The notes under the pieces: model-generated
Seen by the model: the letters and a program-made list of their open reading frames with translations, nothing else
The model's database searches: none
What the model was told of the DNA's origin: nothing
From: a virus
Lineage: Duplodnaviria; Heunggongvirae; Uroviricota; Caudoviricetes
Virus record (IMG/VR): IMGVR_UViG_3300043399_000596
DNA length: 64,000 bases
Direction: 5' to 3' (one strand)
In this document: positions 14,344-50,636 of the stretch, in pieces
How the letters are laid out: every line of letters begins with the position of its first letter
How positions within the stretch are numbered: the first letter of the stretch is position 1
Made by a program: the position numbers and the translations under genes

Positions 14344-14381
14344 TTGACAAATATTAAAAACGGGTTTACAATACAAGTATT
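14344..14381 (+). promoter_or_regulatory. sigma70-type promoter of the reiterated family (TTGACA-17-TACAAT, then CAATACAAGTATTG near-palindrome)
   Basis: 'TTGACAaatattaaaaacgggttTACAATacaagtattg', 26 nt upstream of the 14408 ATG. Confidence 0.6.
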
Positions 14382-14407
14382 GTTAAACAACCTGATAAAG
14401 TATTCAC

Positions 14408-26457: not shown

Positions 26458-26495
26458 TTGACAATAAATTAGTTTGGGCATACAATACATGTATC
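26458..26495 (+). promoter_or_regulatory. reiterated early-type promoter (TTGACA-17-TACAAT, then CAATACATGTATCG)
   Basis: 'TTGACAataaattagtttgggcaTACAATacatgtatcgattgattaaaggat' followed by the ATG at 26517. Confidence 0.65.
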
Positions 26496-26516
26496 GATTG
26501 ATTAAAGGATCATGTA

Positions 26517-31580: not shown

Positions 31581-32426
31581 ATGTTTATGTTAATCGTTGC
31601 CGCTCTGCTTGCTATCGTCATTGCAGTGGGCGTTTATGTTCTCTTTGAGAAAAGTAAATTGGGTATTCTCGGTGGCGCACTGTTGTTTATTGTTGTGCTA
31701 TTGTTCGAATCCTTCACTGTTGTGCCAGGTGGTCATGTAGGCGTGCAAGTTACGCTAGGTAAAATTAATCCTGAGGCACTACAAGAAGGTGCTCAACTTG
31801 TGAACCCTATCTCAAGTGTCCGTAACGTTGATGTTCGACTACAACGTGCTGAATTGAAAAACGCAAGTGCAGGTACCAAAGACTTGCAACAAGTTCACAC
31901 TGATATTGTAGTTAACTTCCGTCTTAGTGGTAACAAGGTCCCTCACATCTACAAAGAATTCGGCTTGAATGTGGATGACAAGGTTCTTGGCCCTGCACTG
32001 AATGAATCATTCAAGGCAGTGACTGCAAAGTATACCAGCGAAGAATTGATTACTAAACGTGACGAGGTTCGACAAGCAATTACTACACAAATTGCTAACA
32101 AAGTCGCACCCTTCGACATTGATATCAGTAACGTCAGTTTGGTAAACTTTGGTTTCAGTGTTGAATATCAGAAGGCTATTGAAGCGAAAGTTACTGCTAC
32201 TCAGGCTAAGCTGAAGGCTGAGCAAGACTTAGAACGTATTAAAGTTGAGGCCGCAAGTCGTATTGCACAAGCTGAAGGTGAAGCTAAAGCTATTGCGATT
32301 CAAGCGCAGGCTATTCAAAGTAATGGGGGTCAAGCGTATGTTCAACTGCAAGCAATTGAAAAGTGGGACGGTAAACTTCCAAACACTATGCTTGGTAACT
32401 CTACTCCGTTTGTAAACATTAAGTAA
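31581..32426 (+). CDS. SPFH/Band-7 (prohibitin/HflC-like) membrane protein
   Basis: N-terminal TM, then 'VVPGGHVGVQVTLGKINPEALQEGAQLVNPISSVRNVDVRLQRAE' PHB domain and a coiled-coil C-terminus. Confidence 0.75.
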   Translation: MFMLIVAALLAIVIAVGVYVLFEKSKLGILGGALLFIVVLLFESFTVVPGGHVGVQVTLGKINPEALQEGAQLVNPISSVRNVDVRLQRAELKNASAGTKDLQQVHTDIVVNFRLSGNKVPHIYKEFGLNVDDKVLGPALNESFKAVTAKYTSEELITKRDEVRQAITTQIANKVAPFDIDISNVSLVNFGFSVEYQKAIEAKVTATQAKLKAEQDLERIKVEAASRIAQAEGEAKAIAIQAQAIQSNGGQAYVQLQAIEKWDGKLPNTMLGNSTPFVNIK

Positions 32427-36443: not shown

Positions 36444-37640
36444 ATGTCCGAAGAACTAAAACCAATCAATCATTGCAGTTTTTGCGGTAACAGCAAAGAT
36501 GTAGTTAAAAAATTAATTGTGGGTGATAACGTTGCCATTTGTAGCGACTGTGTTTCATTGTGTGAGGATCTTATACAAGATGATCAATCCATAAAAGAAG
36601 ATACATTGCCAGAGTATTACCCAGACAAAATTAAAAGTTATTTAGATACTCACATCATAGGGCAAGATGATGCCAAAATGGTGCTAAGTGTTGCTATAGC
36701 TAACCACTATAAGAGAATTACTAACCCACCCAAAAATCTTGAAATGCAAAAGGGCAATGTATTAATATTAGGGCCAACTGGTTCCGGTAAAACGTTGTTG
36801 GCGAAAACTGCGGCAAAATATCTACAAGTACCATTTGTAATTGCTGATGCTACTAGTTTAACCGAAGCAGGATATGTAGGTGATGATGTAGAATCCATGA
36901 TTAATATGCTACTAAATGCTGCAGGTGGTGATAAGGCCCTTGCAGAACGCGGTATTGTTTTCATCGATGAGATTGACAAAATTGCCCGCAAAGGAGAATC
37001 GACTAGTATTACCCGTGATGTATCAGGTGAGGGAGTACAACAAGCATTACTTAAACTTGTTGAGGGAACTATTTGTAGAGTTTCTGGTCAAGGTGGGAGA
37101 AAACACCCAGGAGCAGATATGTTAGAAATTGATACTAAAAACATTCTGTTTATTGCCGGTGGTGCTTTTGTAGGATTGAAAGAACTGGTGCAAAAACGTA
37201 AAGACGGTGGAAGTATCGGTTTCAGTGCTACTGTTAAAGACGTTAAACTAGAAGGTTCGTTGAAGGAAGTTACTCCCGATGATCTTACTAAATTTGGCAT
37301 GATTCCAGAATTCATCGGTAGATTTACTACAACAGTGAGTATTGATGAATTGTCGAAGGAACAATTAGTCAAAATTCTCACTGACGTTAAAAACAATTAT
37401 ATCAGTCAATATTCGTACTTGTTTGAACTAGACGGAATTGAGTTGACATTCACCCCTGATGCTTTAGAACAAATTGCAGAAAATACGCTAAGTTTAAAAA
37501 CAGGTGCACGTGGATTACATACAGAAATCGAACGAGTATTAATGTGTCATATGTATAATACTAGAATATATAAAGAAAATAACATAAAAACACTAAATAT
37601 TACAAAGGAGCAGGTTATTAACCCTACAATATTAATATGA
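36444..37640 (+). CDS. clpX: ATP-dependent Clp protease ATP-binding subunit ClpX
   Basis: N-terminal C4 zinc finger 'CSFCGNS...CSDCVSLC', Walker A '[13 protein letters not shown]', '[10 protein letters not shown]' Walker B. Confidence 0.9.
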
Positions 37641-37855
37641 CAAAAGGAAGACGAGTACAAGTGCATGACGGAAACTGGGAAAAGGCACTAAGAAAATTAA
37701 AAAAGAAAATCACTGACACGGGTTTACTACAGGAACTAAAAGATAGACAAGAATTTGTTAAACCCGCAGTAAAAAGAAAAATTGCAAAAAACCAAGCAGT
37801 CCGTCGTTGGAAAAAACACTTGCGTGACCAGCAGCTTCCTCCCAAACTATTCTAA
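37637..37855 (+). CDS. rpsU: 30S ribosomal protein S21
   Basis: 72 aa basic; '[20 protein letters not shown]...[26 protein letters not shown]' matches S21. Confidence 0.7.
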
Positions 37856-37963
37856 CCTAAATAGTTGTATATTTTACACAATCAAATAAAATAGATATAA
37901 TTATATAGATGCTAAACAGGTCTATATCTTTATAAAATTCTTGCTTAATTAAAGGAGAACACA

Positions 37964-39850
37964 ATGAGCAAAGTCATCGGTATCGATTTGGGTACCACAA
38001 ATTCATGCGTAGCCGTTATTGAAAACGGCGTTTCAAAAATCATCGAAAACAGCGAAGGTGCACGTACTACCCCTAGTATCGTTGCATATACTAGTGACGA
38101 AGTTTTAGTCGGTGCTAGTGCTAAACGTCAAGCTGTGACAAATCCTAAAAATACAATCTATGCGGCTAAGCGTTTGATAGGTCGTAAGTTTAAAGAAGAA
38201 GCAGTTCAAAAAGATATTGACTTAATGCCATACACTATTGTTGAAAATAGCAACGGTGATGCATGGATCAAGGCACAAGACAAAAAACTTGCACCTCCTC
38301 AAGTATCTGCTGAGGTTCTTCGCAAGATGAAAAAGACTGCGGAAGATTATTTGGGGCATGAAGTAACTCAAGCAGTTATTACAGTTCCCGCATACTTTAA
38401 CGACAGTCAACGTCAAGCTACTAAAGATGCAGGTCGTATAGCAGGTCTAGAGGTTCTACGTATTATTAATGAACCAACTGCGGCTGCTCTAGCATACGGT
38501 GTAGACAAACAAGATACAAAAGACCGAAAAATTGCAGTGTATGATTTAGGTGGCGGTACTTTTGACGTTTCCATTATCGAGATTGCAAACGTTGATGGCG
38601 ATAAACAAATTGAAGTTCTTTCAACAAACGGTGACACATTCCTTGGCGGTGAAGACTTTGACCAACGCATTATGGACTTCTTGGTTGATACCTTTAAACA
38701 AGAACAAGGTATTGACTTGACTAAAGATGTATTGGCACTACAGCGTTTAAAAGAGGCTGCAGAAAAGGCAAAGATTGAATTGTCTAGTTCTGCACAGACA
38801 GACGTTAACTTGCCCTACATTACTGCTGATGCAACAGGACCTAAACATTTAAACATTAAAATCACTCGTGCTAAGTTGGAAAGTTTAGTTGACGAGTTGA
38901 TTCAACGTAGTATTAAACCTTGTAAACAAGCACTTCAGGATGCTGGTGTTACTGTCAGTGAAATCGATGAAGTTATTCTCGTCGGTGGTATGACACGTAT
39001 GCCTAAGGTACAAGAAGTTGTAGAACAGTTGTTTGGTAAAGCACCTCGTAAGGATGTTAACCCAGACGAAGCTGTAGCCGCAGGCGCCGCTATTCAAGGT
39101 AGTGTTTTATCCGGAGACAGAAAAGACGTTCTATTACTTGATGTTACACCACTAAGTTTGGGTATCGAAACAATGGGCGGTGTGTTTACTAAGTTAATTC
39201 AAAAGAACACAACTATTCCAACTAAAGCTAGTCAGACATTCTCTACTGCTGACGACAATCAACCTGCAGTAGATATTAAAGTCGGTCAAGGTGAGCGTGA
39301 ATTGTTTAAGTACAACAAACTATTAGGTGAGTTTAAACTTGACGGTATTGCGCCCGCGCCACGCGGAATGCCCCAGATTGAAGTTACCTTTGATATTGAT
39401 GCTAACGGTATCATGCATATTTCTGCAAGAGACAAAGGTACAGGTAAAGAAAACAAAATCACTATTAAGAGTGACAGCGGACTTCATGAAGCAGAAATTC
39501 AACGAATGGTCCGTGAAGCGGAAGAAAATGCAGAAGCTGATAAAAAGATGGTTGAACTCATTCAAGCACGTAATCATGCAGAATCAGTGTTGAATAATTA
39601 CAGCAATGATTATAAGAAGTTCAAGGATCAAATCACATCTGAAGAAAGTGAAAAGATTCAAACTGCAATCGATGCATGTGAAGTTGCTATTGCGGGAGAC
39701 AATACTGAAGCTATTCAGCAATCAGTAAACGATCTACATCAGGCAATCGGACCTGTGCTTGTTAAGAAGCAAGAGTCTGAGGGTTCTGGAAAGAATACAC
39801 AGTCAGTAGATGAGACTGTAGTAGATGCAGAAGTAAAAGAATCTGCGTAA
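37964..39850 (+). CDS. dnaK: molecular chaperone DnaK (Hsp70)
   Basis: '[16 protein letters not shown]', '[12 protein letters not shown]', '[14 protein letters not shown]'; 628 aa full length; SD 'aaaggagaacacaATG'. Confidence 0.95.
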
Positions 39851-39912
39851 TTTGTATCGGGTGCTGCATGGGGCAGGCCCGATATTCATTCTTGCTTTTT
39901 AAGGAGAAAACA

Positions 39913-40359
39913 ATGACAAGAGAATTATCACTACGTTCTACAGATATTCCAAATATCCACAAATTCGGTATAGGATTTGATTCAATGTTCGATGAACTGC
40001 TACGTGCAGCATCAGCACAAACACAGGGAAACTATCCACCCTATAATGTAATCAAAACAGGGGAAGAAACTGTATTGATTGAGGTTGCTGTGGCAGGCTT
40101 CAATGAAGGGGAAATAAGTATCACTGTGGAAAATAGTGTACTGAATATTTCAGGAGAACATGTACACACTGAAGGTGCAAATTGGGAGTATTTTCATCGA
40201 GGATTGAGCCGAAGAAACTTTAAGCAAAAATTTACTCTTGCGGAGCACGTAGAAGTAATCAATGCAGAAATTCTTAACGGCATTTTGAACATTTCGCTGG
40301 AAAGAAAGATTCCGGAAGAAAAGAAACCGAAAAACATTGCAATTAAGTACAATAAATAA
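39913..40359 (+). CDS. Hsp20/alpha-crystallin small heat-shock protein (IbpA-like)
   Basis: SD 'aaggagaaaacaATG'; 'GNYPPYNVIKTGEETVLIEVAVAGFNEGEISITVENSVLNISGEH' alpha-crystallin domain. Confidence 0.8.
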   Translation: MTRELSLRSTDIPNIHKFGIGFDSMFDELLRAASAQTQGNYPPYNVIKTGEETVLIEVAVAGFNEGEISITVENSVLNISGEHVHTEGANWEYFHRGLSRRNFKQKFTLAEHVEVINAEILNGILNISLERKIPEEKKPKNIAIKYNK

Positions 40360-40424
40360 TATAATCAATCTATATTAAATACGTGTGCAAGTGACCCTTG
40401 CACACATTCTTGAGATTAAATATC

Positions 40425-40730
40425 ATGCCACAAACTGATTCTAAAGTAACAATTAAACCAAACTTAAAAGTCAACGAACCGCCTATGTTTAAAGTAATCT
40501 ATATGAATGATGACTTTACCACTATGGAGTTTGTTGTCTCTAGTCTTATCGATCACTTCAATTATACCATAGATACCGCATCGCATATCACTAGCGGTAT
40601 TCACGAATCAGGAAGTGCAGTAGTTGCTGTATTACCCTTTGAAATCGCAGAACAAAAAGGCATGGAAGTAACATTAGAGGCGAGAGATCAAGGATTCCCA
40701 CTTCAAGTTAAAATTGAAGCAGAATCTTAA
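40425..40730 (+). CDS. clpS: ATP-dependent Clp protease adaptor ClpS
   Basis: 'PPMFKVIYMNDDFTTMEFVVSSL' aligns with E. coli ClpS '[23 protein letters not shown]'. Confidence 0.75.
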   Translation: MPQTDSKVTIKPNLKVNEPPMFKVIYMNDDFTTMEFVVSSLIDHFNYTIDTASHITSGIHESGSAVVAVLPFEIAEQKGMEVTLEARDQGFPLQVKIEAES

Positions 40731-41422
40731 ATCTTTATCTCTATACGCTTGGGATAATAGGGATCTCTGTCAAATTTAGAATTATTTACATACTTGACAC
40801 CGTTAATCACGGTGTCAACCATTTTATTATCAGAACCGTATACCCATATTGTAACTTTTTTCTCAGTGTCTTTATCTAAAACACTACCTGCATAGAAATC
40901 GTCAGTATTTGGTTCTTTCTCCTTAAAGAACAGTTCTTTAAGAGGAATACAATTGCTTATTAAGACAATCTTTCTCACATCATTGTGTAATTGAAGTTTT
41001 TCCAGAGTCTTTTCTAGATAGTTTATATCTTCATACTTGAACAGTTTCTGTTGGAAATCAATCATTTCACTAAAGTCAAAATATTTTTCTTGCCAACCGT
41101 TTATACCTACTATAGCAATACCATCAATAACTACCACGTTGTTATGTAAATAAATTACGTTTCTATAGTTTGAACAAATACTCTGTATTTCTTTTATCTT
41201 GGTATCCCTAGATATAGAATATTCATTCTCTAATGTACCATCAATAAAAAACACCCCATGGTATAAACCGCTGAGGTGTCTTAAAGTCCTGTGTAAAACA
41301 CCTATATCATTAGATATATTACCGGATAACACACAAAACAAACTTGTGGGTTTACCAGTCCAATTGAACTCGGATTCGGACGTTAACTGTAGGTCGCTAA
41401 GTAAATCAAACCCGAAGATCAT
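40727..41422 (-). CDS. hypothetical protein (possible calcineurin-like metallophosphoesterase)
   Basis: Weak resemblance only ('VLSGNISND', 'FIDGTLENEYS'). Confidence 0.3.
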   Translation of the reverse strand: MIFGFDLLSDLQLTSESEFNWTGKPTSLFCVLSGNISNDIGVLHRTLRHLSGLYHGVFFIDGTLENEYSISRDTKIKEIQSICSNYRNVIYLHNNVVVIDGIAIVGINGWQEKYFDFSEMIDFQQKLFKYEDINYLEKTLEKLQLHNDVRKIVLISNCIPLKELFFKEKEPNTDDFYAGSVLDKDTEKKVTIWVYGSDNKMVDTVINGVKYVNNSKFDRDPYYPKRIEIKI

Positions 41423-41437
41423 TGGTTAATTGAAAAA

Positions 41438-41770
41438 TTACTCTTTAGGTTTGCTAGCTTTTGGCTTTGCCGTTCTTGCTGCAGGCTTTTTAGCTCCACC
41501 GGTGGCTTTTGGCTTAGCTGCCTTTTTAGCAGGTTTTTTAGCTTTTTCTGCTACTTCTGCTACAGGTGCTGCTGCAACCTTATTTGGATTGTCAGCATGT
41601 GTCGCCCACTCAGTTTCAGATAACTTATGCAACCCAACACAGTATCCTGTAGGACTACGGCCGCAGCCACATTTCACAGGTTCAGGCTGCTTTGGTGTTT
41701 CCACCTTATATGGTGCCTGCGGGGCAGCAGTATCTGCAATTCCGAATAGTTTCTTTAAAAAATTAAACAT
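41438..41770 (-). CDS. histone H1-like basic protein with N-terminal Cys/His knuckle
   Basis: Strong SD on the minus strand ('aaggagaacattATG'); 'CGCGRSPTGYCVGLH'; C-terminus 'AEKAKKPAKKAAKPKATGGAKKPAARTAKPKASKPKE'. Confidence 0.55.
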   Translation of the reverse strand: MFNFLKKLFGIADTAAPQAPYKVETPKQPEPVKCGCGRSPTGYCVGLHKLSETEWATHADNPNKVAAAPVAEVAEKAKKPAKKAAKPKATGGAKKPAARTAKPKASKPKE

Positions 41771-41842
41771 AATGTTCTCCTTATCATACTATTTAGATAT
41801 TTTATACAGAATGGTATTTTTTATATTGTACTAAATAATAGT

Positions 41843-42334
41843 ATGGCATACACCGATCTAACTTTGCGAGAGTTAATGGAGTTACCGTTACCCTCTTATA
41901 CTGAGCAAAAAAGATTGTATTTTAGGCCATCACCTCGACAAATTCATCATGTTTATGAGTTAATTAACTATCACGTTTTTAACAATAAACTCAGAAAACC
42001 AAGACTAATAATTGCCCCTAGAAGACAAAAATATTGGGGGATGTGCATCGGCAATATAGAGATGCAAAAAACAGGAAGTTACTGTGATATAGAGTTAATG
42101 GATAAGTGGATAAGTGTTCAATGGATGGTAGCCACACTAGCGCACGAAATGGTTCATCAATATCAATGGGATATTCTAGGCCCGCAACGATATGATGAAG
42201 GTAAACCATTTTTAATGAGTCATGGGCCTTCATTCTTCAGTTTTAAAGACAAATTAGAAGATCATTTTATACCATTAAAGACTGCACACAGTCAGCGTAA
42301 ATGGTACAAACATCAAGATTTATTTAAAACCTAA
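41843..42334 (+). CDS. SprT/Wss1-like zinc metalloprotease
   Basis: HExxH in 'MVATLAHEMVHQYQWD'. Confidence 0.5.
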   Translation: MAYTDLTLRELMELPLPSYTEQKRLYFRPSPRQIHHVYELINYHVFNNKLRKPRLIIAPRRQKYWGMCIGNIEMQKTGSYCDIELMDKWISVQWMVATLAHEMVHQYQWDILGPQRYDEGKPFLMSHGPSFFSFKDKLEDHFIPLKTAHSQRKWYKHQDLFKT

Positions 42335-42353
42335 TATGTCATAAATACATATT

Positions 42354-43910
42354 ATGCGTGATATTTTAGATAAACTTACCCTATTAATTGAAGCTACTGG
42401 GCTAGCAGGAAGAAAACCCGGAGACCCCTTTCAAAACGATGCTGGGGAAACCATTACATTTAACAATATTCAATTCTTTCCTGAAGGTGGCGGGAGATAT
42501 GAACCCGAAGAACTCGACCAAGCAATCGCACAAGTATCTAAACAGATACCCAACATTCAATGGCAAAACGCAAAAACTACTAGGGCAGGTGGTTTTGCTC
42601 TAATCACATTTGATACTAAAAGTGGTCCTACAACAATAGGTCGTTATCTAAACGATGTAAAAGCTGATCCTGTACAGAATACAATTGATAACAAATTTGT
42701 AATGAACGGTCAGAATTGGAAGTTTGCTAGTAAATCAGCTAAGAAAGAACAATCAGGATTATCACCGTTAGACTTATTGACTGACAGAGATTTGCAAACC
42801 ATACCCGGCATCATGAATCAACTTGCCAAAAGTTTAGGAACAAGTCATCCATTGTACGCAGTCGCACACAAAGTTGCTATAGGTGAGCCGTTACCTATGT
42901 CATTCAAAGCACCTAAAGACATACCATTTGCTGCTTTCCGTGATTATTTCTGTGAGATATTACAGCCCATTGCATTGCAAAAAGGACAATTCAATGGTAA
43001 TGCTATGGATGCGGCCGAAAGATTTTTAGATGGATCCTTTGAAGATACGTTGATTACATTCGGTGCAACAAAAACAGGTGGTTTGACTGACAGTGTTATA
43101 AGCACTAAAGACGGAAAAACTTTGCTTATTAGTAGCAAAGGTGGTAAAGGTGCAGAAGCAAGTGCTAAAAACTTGTATGATGAGGTTCAGAAATTAAAAA
43201 CTAATCCTACTGGACAAAAGTTTTTAAAGAAGTATGCTAAAGAAGTTCAACTATTAGATGACATGATTGGTGCTGGTATGCACGGAGCTCCATTGAAACT
43301 AGCAGTAGATGAGGGTCTGATTGATGCAGAAGAAGCTGAACAAGTTAAAGCATTGCGAAACTTACCTAAAATAGATTTAGAGAATGTAGGTGGACTAAAA
43401 TTGTCTGCTAAATTAAAGAACCTAGCAAAATCTAGAAAGACAAAAAATCCCACTTCAGTTAACATCTACATGCACTTAATCGCTGCGATTGCACATAAAG
43501 TAGCTGAACACGTAAATGCAACAACTAATTTCCCTAAAGCTGCTGCTGACATTTTAAACAACGGAGCACTAGTTCAGGTCTACACAAAAGCGAATGAGGG
43601 AAAAGATCAATGGACTTTAAACGAATTCAAAACAGTTTATCCAAGTGATGCAATTAAAGGTGTGTTTTTGAGTGCTGGTAAAAATTACTCCAGTACTGAA
43701 ATCAAGGGTAACTTCACTTTCTTAATTGACCAAGGACAAGGTAAACCCAAAGCTAGTTCGGGTGATGATGCTCCAGAATCTACAGTAGAACCAAGCAAGA
43801 CACAGGATACTGATGATTTGGCAAAAGCTGCATCTGATATTACGGAACCTAGATCCAAACGAAAGCCACAAGCAACTTCTGGAATAGGTAGAGAAAAACG
43901 AGCCAAATAA
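42354..43910 (+). CDS. hypothetical protein (518 aa)
   Basis: ORF track; no motif recognised. Confidence 0.45.
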   Translation: MRDILDKLTLLIEATGLAGRKPGDPFQNDAGETITFNNIQFFPEGGGRYEPEELDQAIAQVSKQIPNIQWQNAKTTRAGGFALITFDTKSGPTTIGRYLNDVKADPVQNTIDNKFVMNGQNWKFASKSAKKEQSGLSPLDLLTDRDLQTIPGIMNQLAKSLGTSHPLYAVAHKVAIGEPLPMSFKAPKDIPFAAFRDYFCEILQPIALQKGQFNGNAMDAAERFLDGSFEDTLITFGATKTGGLTDSVISTKDGKTLLISSKGGKGAEASAKNLYDEVQKLKTNPTGQKFLKKYAKEVQLLDDMIGAGMHGAPLKLAVDEGLIDAEEAEQVKALRNLPKIDLENVGGLKLSAKLKNLAKSRKTKNPTSVNIYMHLIAAIAHKVAEHVNATTNFPKAAADILNNGALVQVYTKANEGKDQWTLNEFKTVYPSDAIKGVFLSAGKNYSSTEIKGNFTFLIDQGQGKPKASSGDDAPESTVEPSKTQDTDDLAKAASDITEPRSKRKPQATSGIGREKRAK

Positions 43911-43964
43911 GTTGACTTCCTACATAAAAACTGTATAATAGTTTTTATTTTACAAAGGAAGTTT

Positions 43965-44585
43965 ATGAGTCTAGTTCCAATCGTTGTCGAACAAACTGCA
44001 AAGGGTGAGCGTAGTTATGACATTTACAGCCGCCTATTGCGTGACCGTGTTGTCATGCTTGAAGGTGAAGTTCATGACCAAATGGCAAATTTGATTGTTG
44101 CCCAATTGCTTTTCCTAGAATCAGAAAACCCCGACAAAGATATTAGCATGTATATCAACAGCCCAGGTGGTCAAGTAACTGCTGGTCTAGCAATCTATGA
44201 TACGATGCAATTTATTAAGTGTGATGTTCAAACTATCGTATTGGGTCAGGCTTGTAGCATGGGTTCGTTCCTAGCACAAGCAGGTGCTAAGGGCAAACGA
44301 TTTGTTCTCCCAGAAGCACGTACTATGATTCACCGTGTTAGTTCTGGTACTCCTAGTACACGAGGTAGTGTTCATGTACAAGAACTTCAATTTGAAGATG
44401 CCAAGCGCACATTTGAAGAAAGTCAACGTATTAACAAACGTTTGACCGAACTCTATGTGAAGCACAACTCCGCAGGTAAGTCTTACGAAGAATTGTTTGA
44501 AACCATGAAGTTTGATACATTCTTGTCAGCACAGGAAGCGGTTGATTGGGGTCTCGCAGACAAAGTGGTCGAGAAGCGAGAGTAA
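43965..44585 (+). CDS. clpP: ATP-dependent Clp protease proteolytic subunit ClpP
   Basis: '[21 protein letters not shown]', active-site Ser in '[10 protein letters not shown]', His in '[10 protein letters not shown]'. Confidence 0.9.
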
Positions 44586-44603: not shown

Positions 44604-44628
44604 GCTCCGCGAGTCGGGGCTTTTTTTT
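44604..44628 (+). terminator. rho-independent terminator after clpP
   Basis: 'gctccgcgagtcggggc' hairpin followed by T8. Confidence 0.6.
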
Positions 44629-44630
44629 GG

Positions 44631-44659
44631 TTGACAAAAAATGAATTTGGGCGCATAAT
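44631..44659 (+). promoter_or_regulatory. sigma70-type promoter (TTGACA-17-CATAAT)
   Basis: 'TTGACAaaaaatgaatttgggcgCATAAT'. Confidence 0.6.
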
Positions 44660-44689
44660 TAGTAGTATCAAAAATGATAAATACTTATT

Positions 44690-44872
44690 ATGCGACTCAA
44701 TGAAATCAACCAACCTAGCAAAAAAGCAATTTTTGAAAGTCTCAAGTCTGATAAAGACCACACTTTCAACGATGACACCTTGCAGGAGATCACGGAATCC
44801 GTGAGCAACTTTAACCACAATCAGGAAAGCATGACCGTGGAAGAAGCACTTGAGTGGCTCGATAAGGTTTAA
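44690..44872 (+). CDS. hypothetical small acidic protein
   Basis: ORF track; downstream of the promoter. Confidence 0.4.
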   Translation: MRLNEINQPSKKAIFESLKSDKDHTFNDDTLQEITESVSNFNHNQESMTVEEALEWLDKV

Positions 44873-44877
44873 GGTTA

Positions 44878-45615
44878 ATGCTCAGGGTTTTAGGTACACA
44901 AACAGGCGGAGAATTAGAACGAACACTAAACAAATTTAGTGACCAAAAAGAGCGCCTAAAAAAAGAATTATCCTCTTTTATTAAATGGAAAAATAATATT
45001 CCATTTAATGGTTCTGCACCCGGATTTCAAGGTTTCGGTGATAGTGATAAGAGATTTAATACTAGAGGTAATTTAACAAAGGGCGGTAGTAATCTAAGTC
45101 ATGCACATTTAACACATAATCTAAGTATAGTATACAGCGTTAATCAAGCTGATAATACATTAACATTATACGGTATATATAGTCACGATGATTTAGGTAC
45201 TGGTAATCCACCTAATATGCAAAGGCAACAGCAAATGGCTACACGCTGGGCCAATATGAAATTTGCAGGTGATAGTGATTCTTCATTATTGAATGTAACT
45301 AAAAAAGATATTGTTCAAAAATCACCAACTAATAAACCTGATTATACACCTAAAGAAAAACCTTCCCAAGTAGCTCCACAAAAATCCGTAGAGAATCCTT
45401 TAATTAAATTAGCTAAAACTACTGATAATCAATGGCCACAAAGAAATTTATATAATCAATTAATTAATGCTAAAACAAAACAAGAACAATTAATGTTAAT
45501 TAATAAAGAAGCGCAATATCTCAACTTAATAAGACAGCGAAATAAATTATATCCAAATCAAATGGAATATATGCGTGGTTTACAATCAATTTTTAATCAG
45601 TTAACACAAAAGTAA
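44878..45615 (+). CDS. hypothetical protein (possible RelE/YafQ-like N-terminal fold, Q/N-rich C-terminus)
   Basis: 'HLTHNLSIVYSVNQADNTLTLYGIYSHDDLG' weakly resembles the RelE/YafQ core beta-strands. Confidence 0.4.
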   Translation: MLRVLGTQTGGELERTLNKFSDQKERLKKELSSFIKWKNNIPFNGSAPGFQGFGDSDKRFNTRGNLTKGGSNLSHAHLTHNLSIVYSVNQADNTLTLYGIYSHDDLGTGNPPNMQRQQQMATRWANMKFAGDSDSSLLNVTKKDIVQKSPTNKPDYTPKEKPSQVAPQKSVENPLIKLAKTTDNQWPQRNLYNQLINAKTKQEQLMLINKEAQYLNLIRQRNKLYPNQMEYMRGLQSIFNQLTQK

Positions 45616-45623
45616 ACAAAAAA

Positions 45624-45646
45624 CAGCCCCCGAGGCTGTTTTTTTT
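45624..45646 (+). terminator. rho-independent terminator
   Basis: 'cagcccccgaggctg' hairpin followed by T8. Confidence 0.65.
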
Positions 45647-45648
45647 GG

Positions 45649-45690
45649 TTGACAATAAATCAGTTTGGGCATACAATACATGTATTGATT
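45649..45690 (+). promoter_or_regulatory. reiterated early promoter: TTGACA-17-TACAAT plus 14-bp palindrome CAATACATGTATTG
   Basis: 'TTGACAataaatcagtttgggcaTACAATacatgtattgattgattaaaggag'. Confidence 0.7.
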
Positions 45691-45707
45691 GATTAAAGGA
45701 GTCTGAC

Positions 45708-45947
45708 ATGACTATCAAGCGTTTCAAACAAACCCAACGTTTTCGTATTTGTATCGGTGCTGTGTCGTTTTACGCAACCGCTAAACAGATTCGTAATGGT
45801 GTCGGTGACTTTGGTGTTTGCAATGCCGCAACACAAAAGGCTCTGGAATCTTTGGAATACACCCGCTCTTGCGGTGGTGTTCTGTCCAACACTGTTGGAC
45901 AATCTGGCACTTGGGAAGGTATGCAAGTTCAACTGAATATGGCTTGA
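45708..45947 (+). CDS. hypothetical small protein
   Basis: SD 'aaaggag'; the stop TGA lies inside the next promoter's -35 hexamer. Confidence 0.45.
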   Translation: MTIKRFKQTQRFRICIGAVSFYATAKQIRNGVGDFGVCNAATQKALESLEYTRSCGGVLSNTVGQSGTWEGMQVQLNMA

Positions 45948-45985
45948 CAATAAATCATTTCGGGCATATAATACATGTATTGATT
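45944..45985 (+). promoter_or_regulatory. reiterated early promoter copy (TTGACA-17-TATAAT, ATACATGTAT palindrome)
   Basis: 'TTGACAataaatcatttcgggcaTATAATacatgtattgattg'. Confidence 0.65.
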
Positions 45986-45998
45986 GAAAAAGACCGAA

Positions 45999-46163
45999 AT
46001 GAATACTGTTTTGTACTACTTAAATCTTGCATTTATGCCCCTGTTGTTCTTGGTCATTCTGGTCAAAAATGTATACATTCTGACTATTCAAGCATATCAC
46101 TGGACTGTCAGTGAAACAAAAAGTGCTTATCGTTCTAACCGTCGTGCGTTCAAAATGGACTGA
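45999..46163 (+). CDS. small hydrophobic membrane protein (54 aa, below track cutoff)
   Basis: 'MNTVLYYLNLAFMPLLFLVILVKNVYILTIQAYHW...' immediately downstream of the promoter copy. Confidence 0.35.
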   Translation: MNTVLYYLNLAFMPLLFLVILVKNVYILTIQAYHWTVSETKSAYRSNRRAFKMD

Positions 46164-46174
46164 AAGGTAATACT

Positions 46175-46384
46175 ATGGGTTACAAAATTCTGCGTGAGCG
46201 TGATGCTAAGTATCAACCCCGTGACGGTCTGGAAGGTCCTTTCTTCTACCCGAACGGTCAGGTTCTGTACTACGATCCGAAAGAAGGAAAGTACTACGAT
46301 CCTACTACCGACTTCTATGTCGAATATGAGGACGTGCAGGAACTGCAAAATCAAATCTTGAGCCTGCTTGTGGGTAAAAACTAA
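46175..46384 (+). CDS. hypothetical small protein
   Basis: SD 'aaaggtaatactATG'. Confidence 0.45.
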   Translation: MGYKILRERDAKYQPRDGLEGPFFYPNGQVLYYDPKEGKYYDPTTDFYVEYEDVQELQNQILSLLVGKN

Positions 46385-46402
46385 TACGAAAGCTAACAAA
46401 AA

Positions 46403-46606
46403 ATGTATACTTTAGTATTCATTTTATCTACCCCGGTCTTCTTAGGGGAATATTATAACCTAGCCTCGTGTCAGAATGCGATCCGTGAAATTTACGCATT
46501 TCAAATCAACCCTGCTGGACAGCGCCTGCCTGAGTTAAACGAAAGTATTAATATTCGGGCCAATACACAAAAGTCTTACCTCTGTATACCGAAGAAAAAG
46601 GATTGA
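46403..46606 (+). CDS. hypothetical small protein
   Basis: ORF track; stop TGA inside the next -35. Confidence 0.4.
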   Translation: MYTLVFILSTPVFLGEYYNLASCQNAIREIYAFQINPAGQRLPELNESINIRANTQKSYLCIPKKKD

Positions 46607-46644
46607 CAATAAATCGTTTTGGGCATACAATACATGTATTGATT
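46603..46644 (+). promoter_or_regulatory. reiterated early promoter copy
   Basis: 'TTGACAataaatcgttttgggcaTACAATacatgtattgattgattaacggag'. Confidence 0.7.
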
Positions 46645-46662
46645 GATTAACGGAGCACTGAA

Positions 46663-46992
46663 ATGTTTGAAAAAGAAACCGAACACAAAAACGCAGGTCA
46701 ATGGGCTTGGTTTGCTGAGCGTGATGCCCGTATGCGTAGTGCAGTCAATAGTACTACTTTTTCTGATACTCAAAAACTGAAAGCCGAGCGTGTCAAATTG
46801 GCTCTGGAAATGGTTTACAGTGCTGAAAAAGTATTCATTGAATACCGCAAAAAATTCATTAGTGTAAAAGTACACAAAGCACAGGTAAAGGATAACAAAG
46901 GTCTGATCCTTCTGGACATGTGCTACAAAAACGAAGGTCTTGAGAAGGTCAAGACTGCACAAGGTGTAACATATCGTATTCTGAAAGTCTAA
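46663..46992 (+). CDS. hypothetical protein
   Basis: ORF track. Confidence 0.45.
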   Translation: MFEKETEHKNAGQWAWFAERDARMRSAVNSTTFSDTQKLKAERVKLALEMVYSAEKVFIEYRKKFISVKVHKAQVKDNKGLILLDMCYKNEGLEKVKTAQGVTYRILKV

Positions 46993-46994
46993 TC

Positions 46995-47183
46995 ATGCGT
47001 AACAAAAAAGTACTCAAATTGGAACAAGCTATCAATACTCTGGAATATGCAAAATTCCAGATCAAAGAGGCTCTGGGTGACACTGACTCCTACCAAATGT
47101 CTGCCAATCAAATTGATGCTCTGATTGAGGATATCAATGTTGACCTTGAATACCTTGCTCAATCTCGCTACCAGCGCGGTTGA
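46995..47183 (+). CDS. hypothetical small protein
   Basis: ORF track; stop inside the next -35. Confidence 0.4.
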   Translation: MRNKKVLKLEQAINTLEYAKFQIKEALGDTDSYQMSANQIDALIEDINVDLEYLAQSRYQRG

Positions 47184-47220
47184 CAATAAATGGTTTTGGG
47201 CATATAATACTTGTATTGAG
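47180..47220 (+). promoter_or_regulatory. reiterated early promoter copy (TTGACA-17-TATAAT, degenerate palindrome)
   Basis: 'TTGACAataaatggttttgggcaTATAATacttgtattgag'. Confidence 0.6.
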
Positions 47221-47234
47221 TTTGAAAGCAACAC

Positions 47235-47378
47235 ATGTCCGTCTATATTGTCATTCGCAACGATAAAATTGATTCGGTGTTTCTAACACAAGAAAAGGCT
47301 CAGGAACACATTGACAGCATCAAAGGTTGGAATCTTTGGAAAATAGTTGAAAAAGAAATTGAAGGAACATTAGTATGA
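47235..47378 (+). CDS. small protein (47 aa, below track cutoff)
   Basis: '[47 protein letters not shown]'; ATGA-coupled to the next gene. Confidence 0.35.
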   Translation: MSVYIVIRNDKIDSVFLTQEKAQEHIDSIKGWNLWKIVEKEIEGTLV

Positions 47379-47638
47379 ACCAACGAATTTATGAACTTCG
47401 GTGCAAGGCTCAAGAGGCCGCGGCTGAGGCTTTTCCTGGCGATGTGCCATTTGACCCAAATCCCGATCCAATACTGTGGGACAGGATTCATTCAAGTTAT
47501 GAATTGTTCGCCCAGTTGATTGTCCAACGGACATTGGATATCATTGAAGCACACACTGAAATTTTTCAAAGTGCCGAAGCAAAAGCCATGGTTGAACATA
47601 TTAAACAATCTGTAAAAACTGATTTTGGGATTGATTAA
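47375..47638 (+). CDS. hypothetical small protein
   Basis: ORF track. Confidence 0.4.
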
Positions 47639-48144
47639 AGATAGGACCAACCATCTTTATTGACAGAGCACCTGTATCGGATGCCTTCACTGGTTATATG
47701 ATACGCATTTGCGGCATCTATTAACTTATTGAATATCGTACCGTCAGGTGCTACACATCCTTTAACTCTCCAAGTTTGAGTACGACCTAGCATTTTGTCT
47801 CTGATTTTCTTTTTATGATCCTCAGACCTTTTTGCTCCAGTGGCACCATCCCCTCCATCAGATTTATTGCGTAATATACCGGTATTAATATCTTTTCTTC
47901 CATACCATTTAATTAATCTACGCTCAATTGCTAATGCACCAATATCAGTTAAATTGGACTCTATTATTATAATTTTATTAATATTAACCGGCGGATAAAC
48001 CTCACCTTTTCCTTTAATCCAGGCTCTTTTACCTAAACCTTTTCCGATATAATATGGGGTATTATCTTGTCTCAGATATGCGTAAACATAGAATCCGTTG
48101 GGCGGATTTGATTTTGAATAAATATTCATGCTGATGCTCCTCAA
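47635..48144 (-). mobile_element. GIY-YIG homing endonuclease gene (free-standing HEG), antisense to the surrounding early genes
   Basis: '[26 protein letters not shown]' GIY-YIG core plus a basic C-terminal DNA-binding region; the only minus-strand gene in a plus-strand array. Confidence 0.75.
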
Positions 48145-48227
48145 TAGCGTTAGAGTAGTTGGGGTTTCCGACGCCCGCGAACTACACTTTTATTTATCAT
48201 TGTTGCGCCAAAACAACACCCAAAAAT

Positions 48228-48268
48228 TTGACAAATATTCCCAAATCTGCTACAATACTTGTATTGAA
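48228..48268 (+). promoter_or_regulatory. reiterated early promoter copy
   Basis: 'TTGACAaatattcccaaatctgcTACAATacttgtattgaaac'. Confidence 0.6.
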
Positions 48269-48290
48269 ACTGATAAACAGGAGTTAACAA

Positions 48291-48716
48291 ATGGCGTATG
48301 TTAGTCAAGACCTGAAAAAGCAACTGGTCCCTGCTATCAAAGCAGTGCTGAAAAAGTACGGTGTCAAGGGTACTATCGCTGTTCGCAATCATTCTACCCT
48401 GGTTGTCAACATCAAGTCGGGTCCTATTGACTTTATTGAAAATTTCATCCAAACCGATGCCGACAGCAATATCGGTCGCAAAATGGATCAATCTCAAATT
48501 GACTACATTCGGAAGAACCAATCTCTGGATGTGAATCCTTACTGGTACAAGGAACACTTCTCTGGTAAGGCTAAGGCTTTCTTGTCTGAACTTTTGCCCG
48601 TAATGAACAATGGCAACCACGATAATTCCGATATCCAAACTGACTACTTTGACGTAGGTTGGTACGTGGATGTGAACATTGGTAAGTGGAACAAACCCTA
48701 CATTTTCTCTAATTAA
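48291..48716 (+). CDS. hypothetical protein
   Basis: SD 'caggagttaacaaATG'; preferred over the antisense ORF 48150..48638. Confidence 0.5.
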   Translation: MAYVSQDLKKQLVPAIKAVLKKYGVKGTIAVRNHSTLVVNIKSGPIDFIENFIQTDADSNIGRKMDQSQIDYIRKNQSLDVNPYWYKEHFSGKAKAFLSELLPVMNNGNHDNSDIQTDYFDVGWYVDVNIGKWNKPYIFSN

Positions 48717-48725
48717 GGACTAATC

Positions 48726-48863
48726 ATGCAACAATTCCGTATTCGAATCTTCCTGACTGAATCTCAATTTACCGATACTGTGATTATGGCTGAAAACTGG
48801 TTTACTGCCCAGGCGATTGGTCAAGGTCAAAGCCCGGTCGGTAAGGCATTGCTTCTTAACTGA
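48726..48863 (+). CDS. small protein (45 aa, below track cutoff)
   Basis: SD 'taaggactaatcATG'. Confidence 0.3.
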   Translation: MQQFRIRIFLTESQFTDTVIMAENWFTAQAIGQGQSPVGKALLLN

Positions 48864-48882
48864 ATTTTGGTAACATCTATGG

Positions 48883-48918
48883 TTGACAAAAATAACTGTA
48901 GGTGTTATCATTATAACT
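48883..48918 (+). promoter_or_regulatory. sigma70-type promoter (TTGACA-17-TATCAT)
   Basis: 'TTGACAaaaataactgtaggtgtTATCAT'. Confidence 0.5.
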
Positions 48919-48966
48919 ATGTCGTAAGACATATTTTTCATCAACCTAGCTATTAAAGGAAACATC

Positions 48967-49362
48967 ATGGCTAATCAAACTTTCAAAGTTGCAGGTATTA
49001 CTACTCATAACGGTAATTCTAAAGTTCGTTTCACTGACGACCTCATCCGTCGGGTGAAGCAATTCACAAAAGGTGGTGCGACACGCATCGACCTTATGGA
49101 ACTTCCCAGTGAGATGACAAAGGTAGAGGCATTGCAATATATGCAATCTCATGCTGATTTTTCTAGCGCAGAAGATCAGGCACTTATTGCTGACGCACTG
49201 GAAGATCGTCAGAAAACCGCAAATAAGGGCGTAGTTAAAGTCAAGGCTACCAAAACAGCTAAGCCCAGCATTGAAGCTATCAAGGCTCGTGGTAAAAAGA
49301 AAGAAGTCACCGCAGAAGAAATCGTTGCGGCAGCTGATCTCCATAATGTAGATCCTGCATGA
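48967..49362 (+). CDS. hypothetical protein with Lys-rich C-terminus
   Basis: SD 'aaaggaaacatcATG'. Confidence 0.45.
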   Translation: MANQTFKVAGITTHNGNSKVRFTDDLIRRVKQFTKGGATRIDLMELPSEMTKVEALQYMQSHADFSSAEDQALIADALEDRQKTANKGVVKVKATKTAKPSIEAIKARGKKKEVTAEEIVAAADLHNVDPA

Positions 49363-49556
49363 TGAAAGTGTCCGACAAACTCTCTAAAGTCAGCGACAGC
49401 CTGACTGTCAACATGTACGACAACGGTTACATGGTTGAGGTGTCAGGCCGCAATGACGACGGTGATTGGGCTACTGCAAAAGTACTTTGTTCTACTTTAG
49501 ATGAAGTCAATGCAGTTATCAAAGAGGTCGCAACTGAAATTACTCGGGATAGTTGA
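49359..49556 (+). CDS. hypothetical small protein
   Basis: ATGA overlap. Confidence 0.4.
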   Translation: MMKVSDKLSKVSDSLTVNMYDNGYMVEVSGRNDDGDWATAKVLCSTLDEVNAVIKEVATEITRDS

Positions 49557-49557
49557 T

Positions 49558-49776
49558 ATGCTACTTACTACTTTTCGTCGGAAATTAGTTCAGCGCAGAG
49601 ACTTTGATCCTTCTAACCCCGAAGATTTGAAAGAACTTAAGTATTTCAAAGATAACGGTAAATGGAGAGCGTCATGCCCTTTTTATCTAGAGGATCCGTA
49701 TGTTGAAGTGCCCGCGATGTGCGAGGGTAAGTTTACAACTTACATGCTTGACAAGTTAGTGAAAAGTAAGAAATAA
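49558..49776 (+). CDS. hypothetical small protein
   Basis: Internal Met right after the upstream stop. Confidence 0.4.
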   Translation: MLLTTFRRKLVQRRDFDPSNPEDLKELKYFKDNGKWRASCPFYLEDPYVEVPAMCEGKFTTYMLDKLVKSKK

Positions 49777-49801
49777 AAAAGCCCCTTAAGGGGCTTTTTT
49801 T
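49775..49801. terminator. bidirectional rho-independent terminator between the convergent early (+) and late (-) blocks
   Basis: 'aaaaaagccccttaaggggcttttttt': perfect GC hairpin flanked by A-run and T-run. Confidence 0.75.
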
Positions 49802-50636
49802 ACCACGTTGAAAGTGCCGCTCGTTTCCATGTATTGGTTGCAATACATATATAAACATAGGTACTGTCATATGCAATTTGTCCAGCAGTTCCGGTGTCTG
49901 ATGCTGTTGTAGGTACTGTGCTACTAATAGTCACATTCCCCCAATTCATTATACCATTACCGTCTTGTGTTAAGAATTGACCTACTGAACCTGCAGTATT
50001 GGGTAATTGCCAAAGTATGTAGGACGACCCGATGCTATTGGGACCCTGAAATGCAACAAATTTAGAGTTATCTGTTACTGTGTTTAATTTCAAGTAACCA
50101 GTATTTGCAATTACAGCAGAATTTGAGAAAGTGCCGTCTTTCATTGCTGTCGTACCCAGAGTTGCCGAAATGTTACCGGCAGTAAGGTTACCTACACTTG
50201 TGATTGTTCCAGTGGAATAAACGTTTCCTACGTTAGCTGTTCCAGTAACATTTGCGTTACCGGTAGCACTAATGCTGCCAGTAACAATAATATTACCTGT
50301 TAAAGTAAGATTAGAAGTTGTTTTATTGAATGTTAGGTTAGAGTTTCCAGCAAGACTTCCACCATCGTTAAATTGAACTTGTGTGTTTGCCCCGCCCGCA
50401 CTTGCTGAGTCAGCTCCCCAACTTAGCACACCTGAACCGTTTGTTTTTAACACTTGACCAGCACTTCCTCCGGTAATTGTAATATTACCTACGGCACCTA
50501 AATTTGCGCTAACGGTTACGTTTATGTTACCGACATTACTTATGTCTGAACCACCTAATTCTAAACTATCAGCAGACGGAAGTTCCTTAATCACGGATGA
50601 ACTTGAATCTACTACTAATGGGTATCTATTTGCCAT
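49800..50636 (-). CDS. tail fibre-like repeat protein
   Basis: Gly/Asn/Thr/Ser-rich quasi-repeats 'GNANVTGTANVGNVYSTGTITSVGNLTAGNISATLG'. Confidence 0.55.
   Translation of the reverse strand: MANRYPLVVDSSSSVIKELPSADSLELGGSDISNVGNINVTVSANLGAVGNITITGGSAGQVLKTNGSGVLSWGADSASAGGANTQVQFNDGGSLAGNSNLTFNKTTSNLTLTGNIIVTGSISATGNANVTGTANVGNVYSTGTITSVGNLTAGNISATLGTTAMKDGTFSNSAVIANTGYLKLNTVTDNSKFVAFQGPNSIGSSYILWQLPNTAGSVGQFLTQDGNGIMNWGNVTISSTVPTTASDTGTAGQIAYDSTYVYICIATNTWKRAALSTW

Follow-up and report, generated by a model that had tools for sequence, protein, structure and literature searches.

A 55-bp promoter-leader unit repeated between small genes of an uncultured phage: a probable portable early-expression cassette

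Promoter-early stem-loop (PeSL) cassettes have been described in the T4-type myoviruses RB49 and phi1 (Arbiol et al. 2010, PMC2839356) and in PST/T4 and nt-1/KVP40 (Comeau et al. 2014, PMC4122927). They are composite repeats that combine a sigma-70-like early promoter with a Shine-Dalgarno site and a start codon, and they cluster in hyperplastic regions, between ORFan genes and at indel junctions (PMC2839356, PMC4122927). They recombine into mini-circles, and reporter clones acquire promoter-down mutations, a sign of strong promoters (PMC2839356, PMC4122927). The stem-loop of the phi1 and RB49 units often lies across the -10 box, where it attenuates transcription from upstream; in RB49 the stem-loops are G/C-rich and stable (PMC2839356). 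A second system of interest is the host-takeover module of the Bacillus phage SPO1, genes 37-60, which is composed of small early genes (Stewart et al. 1998, as summarised in PMC6873191). Here we describe a repeated unit of about 55 bp in a 64,000-nucleotide stretch of DNA from an uncultured Caudoviricetes virus (IMG/VR record IMGVR_UViG_3300043399_000596; the whole stretch is called the window below), most copies of which stand in front of small genes in an array between positions 44604 and 49801.

We suggest that these repeats are probably portable early-expression cassettes shuffled by recombination, a PeSL logic at work in a large uncultured clade. Each cassette has a near-consensus sigma-70-type promoter, in which ATAAAT follows the -35 box and TTTGGG(Y)A precedes the -10 box, fused to an A/U-rich leader of about 24 nt that often holds stops in three frames and a Shine-Dalgarno site, the ATG lying about 31 nt after the -10. 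Host RNA polymerase would fire from every cassette soon after infection, and each small gene or gene pair of the variable region would be expressed strongly and independently. Packing is tight, the upstream gene often ending in the TGA of the next TTGACA. Genes would be inserted, lost and swapped at cassette junctions, and copies would homogenise within a genome; with 55 bp in common next to otherwise unrelated genes, the cassettes could serve as recombination homology.

Promoter copies in the window and in related contigs

Five close copies, nearly identical over about 55 bp and all on the + strand, start at 26458, 45649, 45944, 46603 and 47180. They fit the pattern TTGACAATAAAT-N3-TTTGGGCATACAATACATGTATTGA with at most two mismatches in 40 nt, which matches five times in the window versus zero expected in shuffles. 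A first-pass annotation of this DNA, made from its letters, had noted a unit of about 50 bp; the repeat is real, while its spelling with N5 finds zero matches, the sequence reading N3. That annotation took five array copies to be alike, and four of them (45649, 45944, 46603 and 47180) are close, whereas the fifth, 48228, is diverged: it has in common with the cassette only the -35 (TTGACAAATATT), the -10 (TACAAT) and the element after the -10, its spacer differs, and it groups with 14344. Both copies placed outside the array are present, 26458 as a close copy and 14344 as a diverged copy of this second subtype, and the two described as more diverged, 44631 and 48883, are so, with CATAAT and TATCAT respectively as their -10.

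The consensus TTGACA-17-TAYAAT, attributed to all nine listed copies, holds for seven, the remaining two having one mismatch; allowing at most one mismatch, TTGACA-N17-TAYAAT matches 14 times in the window versus 1.75 expected. A weight matrix built from the promoters of relatives, with the expectation taken from shuffles, bears out the promoter family over the whole window with 13 matches versus 0.18 expected. Twelve of the 13 are on the + strand and seven lie within 44631-48883; besides the copies already named, the matrix finds promoters at 4708, 12318 and 29245 (+ strand) and 53801 (- strand), each just 5' of a gene on the same strand.

The features of the array, and the two copies outside it, are given below with their weight-matrix scores. 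The dyad named there is a 14-bp palindrome over the -10, which the first-pass annotation had overlooked together with the homing-endonuclease gene on the opposite strand.

44604..44628, + strand: intrinsic terminator, a G+C-rich hairpin with T8, after the ClpP gene and abutting the next promoter; stem 44604-44620 with 5 GC pairs and a T-run, -9.5 kcal/mol
44631..44689, + strand: diverged promoter and leader, TTGACAAAAAAT..TTTGGGCG CATAAT, no dyad, score 20.8; followed on the + strand by g60 (44690-44872) and g245 (44878-45615)
45618..45644, no strand assigned: terminator hairpin between an A-run and a T-run, 4 bp 5' of the next -35
45649..45707, + strand: canonical cassette; -35 45649-45654, -10 TACAAT 45672-45677, dyad 45674-45687, three-frame stops TGATTGATTAA 45686-45696, GGAG 45698-45701, score 31.3; followed by g79 (ATG 45708, + strand)
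45944..45998, + strand: cassette; -10 TATAAT, dyad TAATACATGTATTG, weak Shine-Dalgarno, TGA = g79 stop, score 31.1; followed on the + strand by a 54-aa hydrophobic peptide (45999-46163), then g69 and g67
46603..46662, + strand: cassette; perfect dyad, Shine-Dalgarno ACGGAG, TGA = g67 stop, score 29.1; followed by g109 and g62 (+ strand)
47180..47234, + strand: cassette; -10 TATAAT, dyad TAATACTTGTATTG, no clear Shine-Dalgarno, TGA = g62 stop, score 31.7; followed by g47 and g87 (+ strand)
47635..48144, - strand: GIY-YIG / I-TevI-like homing-endonuclease gene (phrog_314, 3e-9), outside the promoter family
48228..48290, + strand: second-subtype promoter; TTGACAAATATT, spacer CCCAAATCTGC with extended -10 TGn, TACAAT, dyad CAATACTTGTATTG, Shine-Dalgarno AGGAG, score 24.8; followed by g141 (phrog_10415) and g45 (+ strand)
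48883..48966, + strand: diverged promoter; TTGACA-17-TATCAT with TGn, long leader, Shine-Dalgarno AAAGGA, no dyad, score 22.2; followed by g131, g65 and g72 (+ strand)
49775..49800, no strand assigned: bidirectional terminator, 11 pairs, A6 and T6 flanks
26458..26516, + strand: close cassette copy outside the array; 1 mismatch in 40 nt, dyad CAATACATGTATCG, score 28.9
14344..14407, + strand: second-subtype copy outside the array; TTGACAAATATT..TACAAT, dyad CAATACAAGTATTG, score 25.8, before a 422-aa ORF

Terminators were found at the three places where the first-pass annotation had used them to bound the array, 44604-44620, 45618-45644 and 49775-49800; the one at 45618 lies inside the array and is not a boundary. 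Its hairpin (-14.0 kcal/mol; segment fold -16.1 kcal/mol) forms a composite terminator-promoter with the 45649 promoter, and the terminator at 49775 separates the + strand array from convergent - strand genes of tail-fibre-like type, the protein of 49800-50636 matching tail-protein families. A Shine-Dalgarno site had been ascribed to every leader; it is full at 45649, 46603, 48228 and 48883, a near-match at 26458, and weak or absent at 45944 and 47180. As had been proposed, the TGA inside TTGACA is the stop codon of the upstream gene in three cases (ORFs 45708-45947, 46403-46606 and 46995-47183), and the promoted genes encode proteins of 45-245 aa that in family searches are almost all without assignment.

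The same architecture is widespread in IMG/VR. An exact scan for TTGACA-N17-TAYAATACWWGTATTG matched at least 120 contigs, and a scan for TTGACAATAAAT-N11-TAYAAT at least 95 more, together at least 215 distinct contigs, whose promoters follow the general scheme TTGACAATAAAT - sN - TTTGGG(Y)A - TAYAAT - leader - SD - ATG (SD, Shine-Dalgarno). Positions left free by the search patterns are conserved too, namely ATAAAT, which follows the -35, and TTTGGG(Y)A, which precedes the -10 (information content 0.4-1.3 bits at unconstrained positions), the A after the dyad, and a purine-rich stretch at the Shine-Dalgarno site. Among the leaders a few discrete classes can be told apart, each conserved, of which the window has ACWWGTATTGATTGATTAAAGGAG; others are AGAATCTTAGACAGT..AAAGGA and ACATACATAGACAGT... 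Several classes coexist in one genome, and the class in front of homologous genes varies from genome to genome. When the window is compared with its relatives, cassette identity is 87-97%, versus 65-80% for the adjacent coding DNA. In the array itself, the homologue of g141 has a promoter in front of it in most relatives, a promoter is present at the 48883 position in relatives as well, and one relative (L099) has a canonical cassette at the post-ClpP position held in the window by the diverged 44631 promoter.

In a minority of promoters (48228-48256 in the window; L073, L090, L034, L213 and others among the related loci), CCCAAA replaces TTTGGG at the same place. This swap points to a property of the double-stranded DNA that does not depend on orientation, or to a pairing partner upstream.

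A scan of bacterial genomes for the whole promoter with its dyad, TTGACA-N17-TAYAATACWWGTATTG, gave 32 contigs of bacterial or archaeal metagenome-assembled genomes (MAGs; L296-L327). Two of these, L300 and L326, carry the ATAAAT extension, and they, with L299, L324 and L304/L321, look like mis-binned phage DNA of this clade. The remaining MAG matches are ordinary strong promoters in Clostridia and Saccharibacteria, one of which (L306) fronts an apparent tRNA-Leu gene.

The position of the units with respect to genes is that of promoters. In a set of 320 non-redundant clade promoters from the IMG/VR matches listed, with the ATG taken from an ORF of at least 30 codons, the median distance from -10 to ATG is 31 nt (interquartile range 28-33), and an ORF starts within 120 nt in 304 of the 320. 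In ClpP-oriented related loci, a much broader group of which many lack the extended motif and which is of limited use for synteny, 163 promoters are on the + strand versus 11 on the - strand; the window's single - strand match precedes a - strand gene. Within the 320, the extended -10 element TGn accompanies 54% of TACAAT boxes versus 21% of TATAAT boxes (odds ratio 4.6, p = 5e-8), a compensation expected if the sigma-70 holoenzyme reads these promoters. The first-pass annotation's view of the units as strong promoters of bacterial sigma-70 type fits the hexamers, the 17-bp spacing, the orientation, the -10-to-ATG distance, the TGn compensation and the conservation, and these features support the reading of the units as working promoters, each of which would drive small genes. 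Their use by the host polymerase is presumed from the housekeeping-sigma type of the consensus; early timing and a part in host takeover would be expected by analogy with the T4 PeSLs and the SPO1 module.

The units could instead depend on a transcription apparatus that the phage modifies or itself encodes, for instance a sigma factor of its own, an activator like MotA, or a co-factor that recognises ATAAAT or TTTGGG, and form a middle or phage-specific temporal class, which we regard as unlikely. In its favour, ATAAAT and TTTGGG(Y)A are conserved far beyond the hexamers, and discrete leader classes in one genome could encode temporal subclasses. However, the two boxes and the 17 bp between them match the sigma-70 consensus perfectly, compensation of TACAAT by TGn is characteristic of the sigma-70 holoenzyme, and the window showed neither a sigma factor gene nor one like MotA/AsiA, its sole Sigma70_r4 match being the GerE helix-turn-helix of a 291-aa protein. 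Activator-dependent promoters, such as the middle promoters of T4, are also normally without a consensus -35, which counts against such an apparatus.

The overlap of stop codon and promoter extends beyond the window. In 85 of 250 clade promoters the upstream ORF (at least 50 codons) stops exactly at the TGA of TTGACA, and most other upstream ORFs end no more than 13 nt before TTGACA, so that the ends cluster at -13 to +1 and very few read into the cassette. A stop codon inside the next -35 is a general habit of the clade. The three-frame stops TGATTGATTAA before the Shine-Dalgarno site would reset incoming translation, a service that by these counts would rarely be needed.

Gene content at the cassettes

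The array genes are mutually unrelated by a paralogy check, and the repeat is confined to regulatory DNA. A comparison of the neighbours of g79 and g69, qualitative and made on fragments of the relatives' genomes, gave the following orders.

Window: cassette - g79 - cassette - 54-aa peptide - g69 - g67 - cassette
L008: cassette - g79 - g69 - cassette of another class; no intervening cassette and no peptide gene
L102: cassette - g79 - cassette (another class) - g69 - cassette - unrelated 69-aa ORF
L082: cassette - g79 - cassette - unrelated 155-aa ORF

The neighbours of both genes thus vary among the four loci, and the breakpoints are at cassettes. In contrast, the block promoter-g141-promoter-g131-g65/g72 is syntenic in many relatives. 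Copies are also more alike within a contig than between contigs: identity at non-anchor positions is 0.54 within versus 0.42 between, and the window's five close copies are 0.74 alike. All five carry GGGCA, versus 31 of 383 elsewhere, and four of the five carry ACATGT, versus 23 of 100 dyad-class cassettes elsewhere. This within-contig likeness and these private variants indicate homogenisation within the genome or a recent spread of copies; for recombination between cassettes, homogenisation is indirect support only.

Such a pattern could also arise if the units were primarily mobile or recombinational, as a miniature transposable element, an att-like site or a homing-endonuclease target, with the promoter likeness secondary. 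The location at gene-content junctions, the homogenised copies, the palindromic core, and a GIY-YIG homing-endonuclease gene inside the array all speak for it. We nevertheless find it quite improbable, for the units have neither terminal inverted repeats nor target-site duplications, every copy is co-oriented with its downstream gene at a fixed distance from the ATG, and the most conserved positions are the hexamers that sigma-70 contacts. Homologues of the endonuclease, moreover, occur in only three related loci, versus cassettes in at least 200 contigs. The gene orders are consistent with the preferred reading, in which promoter cassettes are the homology at which genes would be exchanged.

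A 14-bp dyad over the -10 box

The palindrome CAATAC-WW-GTATTG is perfect over 14 bp; the TACAAT box forms its left part, and it extends from about -10 to +4. The window has seven of these dyads, all at promoters, versus 0.55 expected; the promoters at 44631 and 48883 have none. Among IMG/VR promoters the complementary right arm is GTATTG in at least 120 contigs and GTATTA in 82, versus 12 and 0 contigs for two scrambled arms of unchanged composition. Covariation is seen in the outer pair, TACAAT:TATAAT being 41:92 unique instances with GTATTG and 1:52 with GTATTA (p = 3e-6; p = 0.015 within the ATAAAT clade only), counts that include homologous, phylogenetically non-independent copies and are suggestive only. 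Some GTATTA instances have arms of 7 bp (ATAATAC-TT-GTATTAT).

A conserved promoter with such 7-bp arms is present in related contigs, at L177 (position 6193), L404, L405, L365, L355 and others, and reads TTGACAATAAAT..CTGC TATAAT ACTTGTATT ATG AAAAAAG. Its ATG is 9 nt after the -10, which would imply a leaderless mRNA.

The comparative data bear on the possibility that the similarity among copies is recent local duplication or drift, or the chance product of A+T-rich DNA, unselected and with a coincidental dyad. The private variants of the window's close copies are of the kind that duplication would leave, and the left arm of the dyad is largely dictated by the -10. Against this, the architecture is found in at least 200 contigs whose coding DNA is 65-80% identical, near-identical strains being excluded; shuffles expect 0-0.18 matches; the flanking genes are not duplicated; and scrambled arms are rare where complementary ones are common. 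These data largely refute duplication or chance, the least probable of the explanations considered here.

The palindrome might alternatively act in RNA, as a read-through hairpin, attenuator or processing site similar to the stem-loops of the RB49/phi1 PeSLs, which overlap the -10 and attenuate upstream transcription (PMC2839356). Most array cassettes have no preceding terminator, so read-through RNA would include the dyad, and the commonest dyad centre in the clade would give a CUUG loop. The predicted hairpin, however, has only five A-U-rich pairs with no U-run after it, and its -1.7 kcal/mol is indistinguishable from shuffles (z = -0.06), whereas the RB49 stem-loops are G/C-rich and stable. 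Rfam gave no match at the dyad, its only two matches, both sub-threshold, being at the 49775 terminator. In addition, the left arm would be untranscribed from the cassette's own promoter, because the start site would be about 7 nt after the -10. The dyad as an RNA hairpin was rejected on its folding energy, and a function in RNA seems to us very unlikely. A divergent bottom-strand promoter arising from the symmetry was likewise rejected by inspection, there being no -35 at the right distance.

Tentatively, and as the simplest account of the dyad, we suggest that it could be an operator for a dimeric DNA-binding protein that co-regulates a subset of the promoters, probably by shutting them off; a dimer sitting there, across both -10 and start site, would keep RNA polymerase out. 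Operators lying over the -10 box of repressed promoters include those of OhrR/MarR type and the 7-2-7 inverted repeats of GerE/NarL type, and TF1 of SPO1 represses early promoters. Like the OhrR/MarR- and GerE/NarL-type operators, the window dyad is an inverted repeat over the -10 and start, with arms of 6-7 bp and a 2-bp centre, and the same site on a whole set of promoters is a regulon-like pattern. Unlike in known operators, its left arm is the -10 itself, so the symmetry of this candidate site is partly forced. To our knowledge the dyad matches none of the described operator consensus sequences, and a full-text literature search for the motif strings returned unrelated papers only; an operator-like dyad fused to the -10 in seven copies appears to be new here.

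More doubtful is the wider proposal that (A)TAATAC-WW-GTATT(AT) is an undescribed operator that defines an early-gene regulon across abundant uncultured large aquatic phages and is present in other phage promoters too. If it were true, one class of early cassettes would be turned off by a dimeric protein of phage or host origin, other leader classes would escape, and a temporal sub-programme would be made of interchangeable promoter-leader modules.

The 26458 cassette is divergent from the gene of the 291-aa protein (25437-26312, - strand), which has a C-terminal GerE/LuxR helix-turn-helix and is the first gene of a - strand block. This protein is a possible candidate for the dyad binder.

Genome setting and comparison with known systems

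Three array genes match families, all of unknown function: g141 (phrog_10415), g69 (phrog_13298) and, weakly, g47 (phrog_3002); the other array genes received no assignment in the family searches. The homing-endonuclease gene lies antisense between g87 and the 48228 promoter and has a GC content of 0.36 versus about 0.42 for its neighbours; its match to the I-TevI DNA-binding domain falls below the curated cutoff. The 245-aa ORF at 44878-45615 has a GC content of 0.31 versus 0.40-0.46 in its neighbours, is rich in N, K and Q, and has one weak homologue among the relatives. With a promoter on one side and a terminator-promoter on the other, it resembles a gene acquired recently.

Upstream of the array is a + strand run of proteostasis genes (36444-44585), unusually complete for a phage in its chaperones and proteases: ClpX (36444-37640), DnaK (37964-39850; about 65% identical to proteobacterial DnaK), HSP20 (39868-40359), ClpS (40425-40730), a SprT-like protein (41843-42334) and ClpP (43965-44585). 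The promoter at 4708 lies inside the 3' end of an upstream ORF; next come the gene of a 64-aa histone H1-like protein of Hc1 type (4820-5014; Pfam Hc1, 1.8e-13) and an ORF (5017-5289) that is likewise rich in lysine and alanine. Pfam matches among the window ORFs from 574 to 42331 include GTP cyclohydrolase I (5e-61) and 6-pyruvoyl-tetrahydropterin synthase, which may point to 7-deazaguanine modification of the DNA. Further matches are a UvdE-type endonuclease (12354-13373), an SPFH/Band 7 protein (31581-32426), several sugar-nucleotide enzymes, a papain-like peptidase and a collagen-repeat protein.

Megablast with the array and blastn with the cassette gave no nucleotide match among cultured phages, and an exact-protein lookup of the window's ClpP gave no record. 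Only two links to cultured phages were seen, both of them accessory genes. One encodes a 687-aa adenylate/guanylate-cyclase-like protein (61554-63617, phrog_35576), which shares 38-40% identity with proteins from Pelagibacter phage HTVC008M and Methylophilales phage Melnitz; g141 is the second, at 45% identity to a Melnitz protein. Relatives in IMG/VR have many genes in common with the window at 40-90% amino-acid identity, and among them are contigs of 168-349 kb with the same promoter motif. Because of these relatives and the lack of a cultured nucleotide match, we assign the window to a large, uncultured and apparently abundant phage clade.

The cassettes would extend PeSL-type mobile regulatory elements from a few cultured T4-type coliphages and vibriophages to this clade, in which the genes are less conserved than the 55-bp unit in front of them; that clade-wide conservation, the systematic overlap of stop codon and -35, and the operator-like dyad on the -10 are the unit's noteworthy features. 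In metagenomic contigs of jumbo phages the unit could be a sequence handle on early genes, accessory ORFan genes and the limits of variable regions, as well as on mis-binned phage DNA in bacterial MAGs. As compact natural expression units, the cassettes are potentially useful genetic parts, and if the dyad is an operator it would offer an entry to temporal regulation in phages that have no cultured representative.

The likeness to PeSLs is manifold. Both repeat an intergenic unit some 50 bp long whose sigma-70 promoter is near-perfect (TTGACA-N17-TATAAT in RB49/phi1), with a Shine-Dalgarno site and downstream start codon at the 3' end and the upstream stop codon within the unit. The window has seven promoters in 4.3 kb between ORFs of 45-245 aa, and its relatives have up to about ten per 10 kb; the units stand at insertion, deletion and replacement junctions between relatives; and composite terminator-promoters are found, here at 44604/44631 and 45618/45649.

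Several points weigh against the reading of the units as portable early-expression cassettes. An upstream terminator hairpin accompanies only two of the seven array promoters, and a T-run with or without a hairpin lies upstream of only 30-37 of 357 clade promoters (about 8-10%). Two array cassettes, 45944 and 47180, are without a convincing Shine-Dalgarno site, and a sigma-70 model leaves the conserved ATAAAT and TTTGGG elements unaccounted for. The clade has no cultured relative, the DNA ligase of the window being 35% identical to its best phage match, and host polymerase use and early timing rest on analogy. As for the dyad, besides the non-independence of the covarying copies, dyad-free leader classes drive homologous genes in relatives, so the dyad would be dispensable for promoter function, and a close-relative scan of IMG/VR with the 291-aa LuxR-type protein found no homologue, which argues against a clade-wide regulatory role for it.

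Further differences separate the units from PeSLs. The window's clade has extras of its own in ATAAAT, TTTGGG, the leader classes and the A/T-rich 14-bp dyad on the -10; its unit is conserved across at least 200 metagenomic contigs, beyond sister genomes; and the clade is not demonstrably T4-like, no T4 core gene having been identified in the window and no T4 core protein recognised among the ORFs scanned. The mini-circles and promoter activity of PeSLs are experimental, whereas the window's unit is known from its DNA. A stem-loop enclosing the -35, apparent by eye in several relatives, was not enriched over a permutation control. Because the stem-loop component is mostly missing, we withhold the strict PeSL label and regard the elements as probably PeSL-like in function.

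The comparison with the SPO1 host-takeover module, limited to what the summary in PMC6873191 conveys, is similar in kind. There too small early genes are clustered, each one or every few of them with a strong promoter of host type and a strong ribosome-binding site, and the products are mostly without assigned function. The SPO1 module, however, lies in the terminal redundancy of a Herelleviridae genome with a Gram-positive host, its promoters are not described in that summary as a single, nearly identical 55-bp cassette, and its early timing and host toxicity are experimental, whereas early timing of the window's genes would be expected by analogy.

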